In this document: positions 44,407 to 47,497 of the stretch, in pieces
Layout of the letters: each line of letters begins with the position of its first letter
Numbering within the stretch: position 1 is the first letter of the stretch
Position numbers and translations under genes: made by a program
NCBI GenBank assembly: GCA_964016885.1
Contig: OZ024765.1
Span: 372,001 to 436,000 of the forward strand
Length of the DNA stretch: 64,000 bases
Direction of reading: 5' to 3'
Origin: Eledone cirrhosa
Lineage: Eukaryota
The notes under the pieces: model-generated
Told to the model about the DNA's origin: nothing
What the model saw: only the letters and a program-made list of their open reading frames with translations
The model's database searches: none

Positions 44407-44594
44407 GCGAGGGAAAAGTGGTAAGGAACCGGGTGGACCATAACGCACCAAAGTACTCAATACTTAGGGTAGTAGAGTGGGTAATAGGAACGAGTAGGAC
44501 CCCGACGGCTGAGCTCAAGCCGTTTCGACGGCTAATTCTGTACTGAATTAGCCGTCGAAACGGCTTGAGCACAGCCGTCGGGGTCTTACTTACT

Positions 44595-44599
<5 letters not shown>
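44407..44599 (-). mobile_element. family B element with 116-bp palindrome (44484-44599)
   Basis: Arms mirror around TGTACT (44539-44544); flanked by (TA)n; same layout at 47304-47497. Confidence 0.85.
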
Positions 44600-44680
<81 letters not shown>

Positions 44681-44768
44681 CGTGTAAACGTGTGTATATT
44701 AATTAAATAACCTTTTAAAACTTTATTTATTTATTGATTTATATATACTTTGTTATACTAAACAACTG

Positions 44769-44814
<46 letters not shown>

Positions 44815-44858
44815 GGAATAATGTTGGCTTCTTGCTACAATAATTTCTATACTTTTCA

Positions 44859-44948
<90 letters not shown>

Positions 44949-44950
44949 TA

Positions 44951-45023
<73 letters not shown>

Positions 45024-46030
45024 GCACATGGGTTAGTTTAGGTCTCAAACCTAATAAACGTATATTAACTCAAATATACAGTGGAGTAATAAAATTGGAG
45101 ATATATTATTTATATTTAATAATACTTATTAATTAAAGTTAAAATTTATTTTAATACTAAGTATATTGTATATTAAGAACATAATATAAACATTATTGAA
45201 GCTTAAATTAATAGAAATGTATCCATCAGCAAAGTAATTTAAAATTATTAAGAACTATTAGCCGAGGGGCTTTTGTGTATACATGTACAGACAGATATAT
45301 ACTCTTACATGTGTATACATGTACAGGCCCATATTTATTCAGACAGGTGTATATATGTACAGGCACATATATACTCACACAGGTGTATATGTGCGTGTAT
45401 ACACACGTGTATATATTTAGAAGAAACGGTAAATTTTTAAACTCCAGAGTAACTCGACTCACTATTTAGCCTGTATTGAAATTTTTAGACTGTATGAAAT
45501 TGTCTTATGTATTTATATAATATTATATTATATTAGGTATGAATATTACATTATATTAACCATGTAGCAGGTACTAATCAAGTTATTTCAGGCAACCACA
45601 AAGACTCTATATTGTAGTATGTTAATACATTACCGTCCATAGTAAAGAAAACAGTTAGTAAAATCTGACACCAAGAAAAACGGCCGCAGGATGTGTCCAT
45701 ACATATACCACAACAACGATAAATACAAAATATACCAGGGAAAAGAAATTATTTAGCAATCAATTACAACCATTTTGAAGTTGGAGACCAGAAAAATAAT
45801 TGTTTTTAATTATCTATGTGATGTTTCTCGTGAAGTTGTCAGTGGCGTGTTGTAGACGTAACTGCTGAGTGATGAATGTCGTGGGAAAAGTCTTTTGACA
45901 TGGTGTTAATTATCTAGGGACACAAATATGACATGATATTATAATATTAAGAAATAATAATGAGATGAATATAAAGAACAACATCAACAACCACAATAAA
46001 AATAGCACTAAAAATATAATAATAAAGATA

Positions 46031-46585
46031 ATAATGGTTTCTAGTATAGGTACAAAGCCGATTAAATCGATCCCAGTGCTTTACAGGTACTTTATTTTAT
46101 CGACCCCGTAAGGATGAAAGGCAAAGTTAACCTCGGCGGGATTGGAACTGGGAACGTAAAGGGCCATAACTATATACCACCAAGCATGTTGTCCCCCTTC
46201 TACCCACACTGCCACCACCTGCATATGATAATTGTTTCTACTTTTGGCACAAGGCCAGCAATTATCCCAGTGTATTACTGGTACTTTATTTTATAGACTC
46301 CGTAAGGATGAAAGGCAAAGCTAACGTCAGCGGGATTTGAACTCAGACCATAAAGGGCCGTGACTCTATGCTGTAAAGCATGATATCCGACGCTCTACTG
46401 ATACTGCTCATCTATTGCCCTTATAATATTGTTTCTACTTTTTGGCACAAGGACAGCAATTTCCCCAGTGCATTACTGTTACTTTATTTTATCGACCCCA
46501 GTGGGATTTGAACTCGGAATGGCAGGGGCCGTAACTCTATGCTGTAAAGCATGGCGTCAGACCTTCTAACCAATACTGCCAAACC
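46031..46585 (-). mobile_element. three head-to-tail tRNA-derived SINE copies
   Basis: Approx. 46031-46221, 46229-46420, 46427-46585; each homologous to 13971-14155. Confidence 0.88.
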
Positions 46586-47087
46586 ATATAATAAACATAA
46601 TATGACAAGTAAATAGATTATTAACATATTTATACTAGGTAATCGCCTTGGGTGTAATATTTAATTAGAAAGCAAAACAAGATTCAAATTACCTTTACCT
46701 TGATATAAAATATAGCATCTGGTAAATAAGTTGATGGAGCCAGCCGTTGGCTGGAAATCACAAATCAGAAATACGCTCATTACTGAGAAGTTAATAAACT
46801 CTTTATTTATAATATTAACGGTGTTGGATGTCTTAGATTTTGAAGGACGCTTCGGGCAATTTATGTTTGTCATAATAATTGACAGGAAAAAGAAAATGAA
46901 AAATGAAGGCCAATCCCTACATTTTGATTTGCATACGGAAAGAAGAAAAAAATTAGTAACAGCAATAATAAAAATACTAATAATAACAATGAGAACAACA
47001 ACAACAGTGATATGACTAATAATAATTTCATCTGAACCCTAATCAAATTCTATAGTACAAGCAACCCCTTGAATTCCCTCTCACACT

Positions 47088-47138
<51 letters not shown>

Positions 47139-47227
47139 CGGAAGAAGTGTGGTAAGGAACAATTTTATTAAATGTTCCTTTATATATATATACACAGACA
47201 CATATATATATATATATATATATACAA

Positions 47228-47303
<76 letters not shown>

Positions 47304-47305
<2 letters not shown>

Positions 47306-47492
47306 CAAAGGAAATGTGGTAAGGAACCAGATGGACCATAACGCACCAAAATACTCAATGTTTAGGATAGTAGAGTGGGTAATAGGAACGAGTAGGACCC
47401 CGACGGCTGAGCTCAAGCCGTTTCGACGGCTAATTCTGGACTGTATTAGCCGTCGAAACGGCTTCAGCTCAGCCGTCGGGGTCCTACTCGTT

Positions 47493-47497
<5 letters not shown>
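47304..47497 (-). mobile_element. family B element with 116-bp palindrome (47382-47497)
   Basis: Arms mirror around TGGACT (47437-47442); flanked by (TA)n. Confidence 0.85.

Follow-up and report, generated by a model that had tools for sequence, protein, structure and literature searches.

How does a palindrome that seems to keep only the substrate half of a hammerhead ribozyme come to lie in two places, and does it move as a unit? Two such copies in a 64-kb stretch of AT-rich animal-type DNA (the window; 29% masked as microsatellite or N) raise this question, and a preliminary description had answered that a single fold-back made the palindrome, which was then amplified. We reach a different answer: the palindromes probably form repeatedly on insertion and do not spread as a unit, and the high-copy repeat behind them is likely the 3′ end (pseudo-LTR, pLTR) of a (TA)n-targeting Penelope-like retroelement (PLE). 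The two copies are built as follows, with ribozyme parts named by their likeness to a hammerhead.

44407-44599: copy 1 as a whole, embedded in a (TA)n tract.
44407-44483, minus strand: one-sided tail of copy 1, up to the long (TA)n-joined 3′ end; missing from the right arm.
44484-44544, minus strand: sense arm of copy 1, with loop (44539-44544), stem II 3′ strand, GAAA, palindromic stem III, GUC and stem I 3′ strand; its short 3′ end is 44484.
44545-44599, plus strand: inverted 55-bp arm of copy 1, head-to-head, stopping at the short (TA)n-joined end; 5/55 pairs mismatched.
47304-47497: copy 2 as a whole, embedded in a (TA)n tract.
47304-47381, minus strand: 78-bp one-sided tail of copy 2, from the short 3′ end 47382 to the long 3′ end 47304 (sequence comparison and read mapping).
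47382-47442, minus strand: sense arm of copy 2, with putative +1 at 47442 (AGTCC), the 5′ hot spot in reads; stem II 3′ strand 47436-47425, GAA 47424-47422, stem III 47421-47403, C17 47402, stem I 3′ strand 47401-47398.
47443-47497, plus strand: inverted 55-bp arm of copy 2; 2/55 pairs mismatched.

Alignment and arm pairing bore out the two palindromes of the preliminary description with their endpoints (44484-44599 and 47382-47497; 116 nt each, 55-bp arms, 6-nt loop reading TGTACT in copy 1 and TGGACT in copy 2). The copies are 92% identical across 188 nt, with 18 differences in 193 gap-free positions, and copy 2 has a predicted fold of -119.1 kcal/mol (z -14.9; 0/200 shuffles equally stable). 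Both are asymmetric: the palindrome is extended by 77-78 bp at one of its two ends. The minus-strand order of parts is inverted arm, loop AGTCCA, GAATTAGCCGTC, GAAAC, palindromic stem III, GTC and GGGG, and (TA)n starts 20 or 98 nt past the GTC. Because the flanks (700 bases per side) have nothing in common except microsatellite, the copies are not one local duplication, which excludes an alternative that the preliminary description had named as refuting it; their right arms have no derived changes in common. The other alternative that it had named, an ordinary MITE with TIRs and a TA target duplication, would account for 55-bp inverted arms at TA-rich sites, but the asymmetric 78-bp extension, the predominance of one-armed copies and the variable inversion points make it scarcely tenable.

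Further pieces of the repeat occur in the window:

54724-54812, no single strand: asymmetric head-to-head copy, a 32-bp long-end piece (54724-54755) joined to a plus-strand sense arm (54755-54812) that starts at the same AGTCC as copies 1 and 2.
1449-1570, minus strand: one-armed, 5′-truncated long-form copy joined to (TA)17.
20729-20768, plus strand: one-armed copy of a second subfamily, truncated at GAAAC, its end near (TA)20.
47139-47160, minus strand: tail-only piece joined to (TA)21; its BLAST match is weak (17 nt, 47144-47160, E 0.12).

A similarity search of the window recovered the fragments reported earlier (1449-1570, 20729-20759 and 54724-54812), and all six pieces sit at or near microsatellites. 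Short copies of the repeat carry no ORF; open frames that span the element have no ATG and were taken as chance. The family's shared upstream motif had no further occurrence in the 64-kb window.

Other repeats surround these copies. Directly left of copy 1 lies a 2.7-kb minisatellite (41499-44230; period 40 bp, sub-period 20 bp) with strong strand skew, and three SINE-like pieces lie between copies 1 and 2. They belong to a family with many copies in tandem and inverted clusters (46028-46586, 36958-37542, 1790-1979, 13970-14155, 29915-30281 and 40161-40353), of which those at ~46,000-46,600 resemble octopus SINEs and suggest that the DNA is from a cephalopod. At 30464-32014 there are 3.8 tandem copies (91% matches) of a 411-bp unit, each with a long internal inverted repeat whose arms carry tRNA-like promoter words by eye; ARAGORN found 0 tRNA genes.

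We asked how far the motif can be called half a hammerhead. GAAA, stem III and NUH are present. Among 20,000 dinucleotide-preserving shuffles of the one-armed unit (139 nt), scanned on both strands, a C-GAAA followed by a Watson-Crick stem III and UH arose in 44 with a stem of at least 5 bp and in 5 with at least 6 bp, the descriptor having been written after the motif was seen. Fold prediction gave stem III pair probabilities of mostly 0.55-0.67, versus 0.3-0.45 for a rival hairpin (AGCCGT-CGAA-ACGGCT), and given this competing hairpin the motif may have another role. A sequence scan found no CTGANGA in or beside any window copy, in line with the preliminary description of the arms; neither CUGANGA nor a U3-A8 core occurs in cis with stems I and II, and the 64-kb window has no partner strand. 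Rfam returned 25 matches for copy 2, none a hammerhead or other ribozyme, and no ribozyme among the 150 of 690 window matches listed; microRNA-like hairpins appeared in both only below threshold. A cis type II hammerhead and an HDV-like or twister fold were rejected by eye on comparison with consensus sequences, as was a core on the antisense arm, where CTGAGCT has C at position 8. Pattern scans of viral contigs and prokaryote genomes each gave 0, and the four metagenome loci that matched, all 60-65% GC and similar only in the seed, we regard as chance hits; none of these collections is built from animal genomes, so that the blanks carry no information on a parent.

In sibling families the 3′ half of the hammerhead occupies a place ahead of (TA)n at which the CGAAA/palindromic stem III/GUC motif stands here, and published PLE hammerheads have a palindromic stem III; judged on these features, the motif is most likely the 3′ half of a hammerhead, as the preliminary description had held. 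Because no CUGANGA-bearing parent was read, this origin rests on position, palindromic stem III and the post-hoc shuffle test. A plausible position for the palindrome junction is the stem II apical loop, where the earlier fold-back site had been placed.

The sibling families include one, here family B, that has the same build as the half-hammerhead palindromes, but with an intact hammerhead; a truncated ORF of the window is listed after it:

3341-3681, no single strand: family B, a 275-bp head-to-head palindrome (3341-3615) with a 66-bp one-sided tail, (TA)n on both sides and an intact U3-A8-type hammerhead core in each arm.
24200-25159, minus strand: 5′-truncated ORF of 319 codons joined to (TA)20, with a Cys-rich linker and a YVGST motif.

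A U3-A8 hammerhead variant has been described (PMC4209133). A descriptor search of the window found eight complete hammerhead-like motifs with cleavage sites 38-147 nt ahead of (TA)n; besides family B, four intact ones lie 38-58 nt ahead of it. The ORF had 0 Pfam hits, and its Atlas clusters, at 0.95-0.97, include two with GIY-YIG in 26-28% of members, which is a lead only. It is likely the RT thumb, Cys linker (which we take to be Neptune-type) and GIY-YIG end of an autonomous PLE, and shows the PLE enzyme class in this genome, with no link to the half-hammerhead family.

Several smaller features were noted beside these families. A second copy of family B (54494-54699) opens with three 20-bp direct repeats, as if RT had re-annealed at the template 5′ end. 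Further hammerhead-like motifs were seen by eye at 1351, 59308 and 59415, the last two forming an inverted pair of CTGATGA hammerhead-like pLTR pieces (59100-59560; 59308 minus, 59415 plus) that differ in 3′ length and are separated by ~100 unrelated bases, and a decayed CTGATGA motif follows the ORF at 24083. Short families that end in a hammerhead, 38-58 nt and (TA)n lie at 3774-3961 (+), 17099-17284 (-), 14790-14950 (+), 11162-11284 (-), 4178 (-), 1351 (+) and 16246 (-). Three copies from two sibling families open with the same CACTATCC word (CACT), a possible common start site.

We mapped 4 of 23 sequencing runs (X1, X21, X4 and X18) to the reference stretch 47298-47488. X1, which may be the window's own sample, gave 14,864/16,285,364 contigs and X21 gave 23,730/12,467,656 reads; X4, from another organism, gave 109/17,641,350 contigs, and X18 gave 0/17,074,242, which is no proof of absence. 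Abundance was ~8-13 copies per Mb, a read-derived and biased estimate; X21 is a RAD library in which 7,272 molecules stop at AATT 47432-47435, read as the restriction site, so that its counts are biased. Statements on read ends and variants refer to the 18 of 402 loose-end, 40 of 163 substitution and 12 of 16 indel rows listed.

Among the X21 reads, 10,336/23,730 extend past an end of the reference stretch. (TA)n is joined directly at the short end 47382 in 3,573 reads and 96 contigs, and a variant clipped at 47394 is joined to it in a further 1,333 reads and 88 contigs. The repeat has two alternative (TA)n-joined 3′ ends, 47304 and 47382, 78 bp apart, and because (TA)n joins directly at 47382, the endpoint of the right arm is a family-wide end. 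The opposite end clusters at AGTCC/AGTTC, a hot spot that recurs in two subfamilies and in two organisms. Across the loop, depth drops from 0.83M to 0.17M and 0.13M in successive bins of X1 and from ~1,956 to 156 in X21. One-armed copies therefore dominate this very abundant short repeat, and palindromes are a minority form, on the order of 10-20% of the copies that reach the loop.

The second subfamily reads ..GATCCGAACT, ends at GAACT and then diverges (101 X1 contigs, 14 X4 contigs); agreement past this end is 0.48 (X1) and 0.5 (X4), with the first 10 letters in common, and the end is a real one in the same register as that of subfamily 1. In subfamily 1 the inner end is no strict boundary, some copies having ~22 further upstream bases in common. 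This extension was read from two X1 sets with no contig in common (83 behind 47442, 23 behind 47449), which match in register at 14/15 letters, with agreement of 0.48 and 0.66 versus 99th percentiles of 0.38-0.43 and 0.43-0.50 for random window 30-mers, the agreement measure and effective n being uncertain. Its 30-letter consensus stops short of where CUGANGA would lie. By eye, two words on the sense strand of the extension could pair with parts of the repeat: GGCTAA (or GGTTA) with TTAGCC (or TAACC) in the 3′ strand of stem II, and TAATT with AATTA around the loop. A longer, non-palindromic form therefore likely exists, its predicted stem II having AGTCCA as apical loop and not being the perfect 12-bp stem; 47443 is A, as in this longer form, in ~10% of loop-crossing X1 depth.

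The sharpness of this 5′ hot spot, and its recurrence across subfamilies and organisms, could also mean that it marks a ribozyme product, the repeat being a retrozyme- or SINE-like RNA cleaved just before AGUCC in which GAAAC..GUC serves as a protein-binding or degenerate element; the 61 nt from the 5′ end to the short (TA)n end are nearer the 38-77 nt of sibling families than are the 20 nt from GUC. We find this improbable. The listed Rfam matches include no ribozyme family and the window no upstream core, the shared upstream sequence can pair with the stem II strand and put AGUCC in a loop, and PLE hammerheads cleave poorly in vitro (PMC4209133). A tandem or circular form is hinted at by only one joint row in 15 (a 'goes back' row, depth 5); copies are dispersed and without a core, and not in the head-to-tail tandems of retrozymes.

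The same fixed end invites comparison with Helitrons, whose 3′ signature is a hairpin ~11 nt before CTRR, with a 5′ TC and insertion between A and T. A Helitron-like rolling-circle element on the plus strand would have its 16-nt hairpin at 47416-47431, 11 nt ahead of the fixed end CT followed by AA, a size and spacing that fit the Helitron signature, and it would explain both the heterogeneous flanks of the fixed end and the loose-end consensuses that begin with A after CT. A is the commonest base anyway, however, and reading RR would take a per-position agreement that the consensus lines do not give. The 5′ TC is at neither other end (these read AC.. or GG.. after (TA)n), insertion is not between A and T, there are two alternative (TA)n-joined ends, inversions are head-to-head and only one side carries a tail, and family B shares this build while keeping an intact hammerhead. 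We consider such an element about as doubtful as a ribozyme product.

The junctions bear on whether a palindrome could have been amplified. Eight opposite-strand joint rows, built like the window copy at 54724, run from 47432-47443 (5/8 from 47441-47443) to variable points at 47343-47388. Seventeen contigs have a near-blunt junction with a CCAGA insertion, and one has a subfamily-2 palindrome centred elsewhere, on TCCGGA. Variants 47433 and 47408 recur at the mirror positions 47446 and 47471 of the other arm (in summed tables, the arms not being phased within a copy); no fewer than two subfamilies thus have the common junction.

The earlier proposal, in which a palindrome from a single fold-back multiplied as one unit and a parental hammerhead cleaves it in trans, has in its favour that one junction dominates among loop-crossing contigs (~170,000 summed depth in X1 versus ~4,000 for the near-blunt junction; a few palindromic master copies could also produce this), that copies 1 and 2 have junction, ends and tail side in common, and that the minus-strand junction TCAGTC resembles the initiator consensus, so that palindromic copies could be transcribed. 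It is nonetheless very unlikely, a shade more so than the two preceding alternatives: the (TA)n end is family-wide, one-armed copies dominate, junctions are several, and subfamily variants are mirrored in both arms, right arms having no common derived change. A transcript starting at the loop would moreover exclude the inverted arm, and palindromic RNA would pay a predicted penalty to form the hammerhead (see below). Nor do the reads favour the proposed parent with a perfect 12-bp stem II and CTGANGA: loop-crossing reads continue into GAAAC without a step at 47454/5, the point at which such a parent should diverge from the reference; none of the 18 of 402 loose-end rows listed falls there, nor does depth drop; and the upstream sequence that some copies share is a different one.

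Insertion by PLE machinery is our preferred reading, and a probable one. Copies 1 and 2, the copy at 54724 and the eight opposite-strand joint rows are inverted head-to-head copies; the two 3′ ends make the 78-bp tail optional at one end; and the window pieces and the (TA)n loose ends in reads point to a (TA)n insertion bias. Of the type I hammerhead expected in a pLTR only the 3′ half is seen, the extension consensus stopping before the core. Several findings count against this reading: no copy is linked to an RT/GIY-YIG ORF, the 78-bp tail exceeds the published 30-40 bp, no CUGANGA-bearing parent was read, one junction dominates in X1, some copies run on past the inner end, a competing hairpin is predicted, and X18 gave 0 contigs. 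We describe the repeat as working like a PLE end, and do not class it as a hammerhead, retrozyme, MITE or Helitron.

We infer that a PLE protein would carry out target-primed reverse transcription from two internal start sites, which would give the two (TA)n ends, as for the Anolis PLE. The AGTCC/AGTTC hot spot would be the 5′ end of the RNA. There is about an even chance that it is an internal initiator-type transcription start in the hammerhead stem II loop; an RT stop or hairpin opening is less probable, and RNA cleavage is unlikely. The hot spot TTAGTC/TTAGTT is close to the invertebrate initiator consensus; by eye no DPE-like motif lies at +28 of the putative start. Copies that start at the hot spot have no CUGANGA strand, and self-cleavage is not expected of them. 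The missing catalytic half need not hinder their insertion, because hammerhead mutants of the Anolis PLE still insert (PMC11167929). The head-to-head inverted piece of a minority could arise if each strand of the cut (TA)n target served as a primer; alternatively, a cDNA end might fold back on the self-complementary TAATT/AATTA bases at the loop, so that one junction would keep recurring. On this view palindromic DNA would be an inert by-product, and its RNA, if made, a 55-bp duplex.

Known systems offer parallels. PLEs as a rule have inverted 5′-truncated copies, a tail at one end and a (TA)n bias (PMC8557442); rotifers have head-to-head palindromic junctions, solo pLTRs, 18-38-bp palindromes at pLTR 5′ ends and an Inr-like TCACT (PMC3846280), and Penelope has an internal promoter (PMC2377424). 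Like EN+ PLEs with inverted pLTRs and Neptune/Naiad-type (TA)n targeting (PMC8557442, PMC3846280), our repeat has 5′-truncated copies, a head-to-head palindromic junction, a one-sided tail, solo pLTRs and microsatellite targets; unlike them, it has no linked ORF, a 78-bp tail, a unit of 61 or 139 nt and a 5′ hot spot within a hammerhead-like motif. The Anolis PLE PAc (Poseidon), studied in vitro, cuts its target on both strands and extends each of them; its tail is set by two internal sites of RT initiation, and its hammerhead is dispensable for insertion (PMC11167929). PAc thus resembles the repeat in its two 3′ ends defining a tail, its AT-rich target and the cutting and extension of both strands, but it is autonomous, and the available text describes no fixed 5′ end inside its hammerhead.

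Dispersed and opposite-strand hammerheads have been attributed to truncated PLEs (PMC4209133). With the minimal type I hammerheads of metazoan PLEs in that report, the repeat shares C11.1-GAAA, a palindromic stem III, NUH, a short stem I strand, a place near the 3′ end, mostly dispersed copies and opposite-strand pairs, whereas most copies here are without CUGANGA and the 5′ strands of stems I and II, and stem III is longer (5-6 bp plus a palindromic loop). Non-LTR retrozymes (PMC7761336; bioRxiv 10.64898/2026.07.22.740005) are likewise short repeats related to PLEs, non-coding but with hammerhead sequence and probably moved by PLE proteins, yet they are head-to-tail tandems with a complete hammerhead per unit, while the present copies are dispersed, head-to-head and without the catalytic strand. 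In the O. vulgaris assembly PLEs make up 6.83% (supplement of PMC13282606); the available text of that repeat paper and supplement contains neither the word 'hammerhead' nor a sequence for a half-hammerhead family. In a literature search covering few subscription papers, no family with copies that begin within the hammerhead came to light.

The suggestion that the retained half is processed in trans can be assessed by fold cost. With a model catalytic strand tethered to its target (three oligo designs, three targets; a setting biased towards pairing by the tether and by the designed complementarity), forcing the hammerhead fold was predicted to cost 0-0.3 kcal/mol for one-armed RNA and 63.5-71.4 kcal/mol for palindromic RNA. 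The palindrome, proposed earlier as the substrate, thus appears in this model to be the least likely one, given its predicted penalty of 64-71 kcal/mol, and the one-armed transcript would face no such penalty. PLE hammerheads have been proposed to pair as dimers via the palindromic stem III (PMC4209133, PMC6765202), and by analogy such pairing would offer one-armed RNA a natural trans route. One can imagine, as a speculation of low probability, that a promoter inside loop II of the element's own hammerhead yields two RNAs, a long one with the complete ribozyme and a short one with the substrate half, and that the short RNA seeded on the order of ten thousand copies whose one-armed transcripts are natural trans substrates of the full-length ribozyme (by I/II pairing, or I/III pairing via the palindromic stem III). 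If so, a split hammerhead would let a retroelement control its own parasites.

The palindrome itself is most likely ordinary for PLEs, the residual oddity being the 5′ hot spot inside a hammerhead-like motif. The family's very short copies number in the thousands; their two fixed 3′ ends, single 5′ hot spot and stereotyped junction can separate double priming from cDNA fold-back and so bear on how the inverted and tailed insertions of PLEs form. If the hot spot is a transcription start inside a ribozyme, it would also bear on the role of PLE hammerheads, which the cited papers call unresolved.
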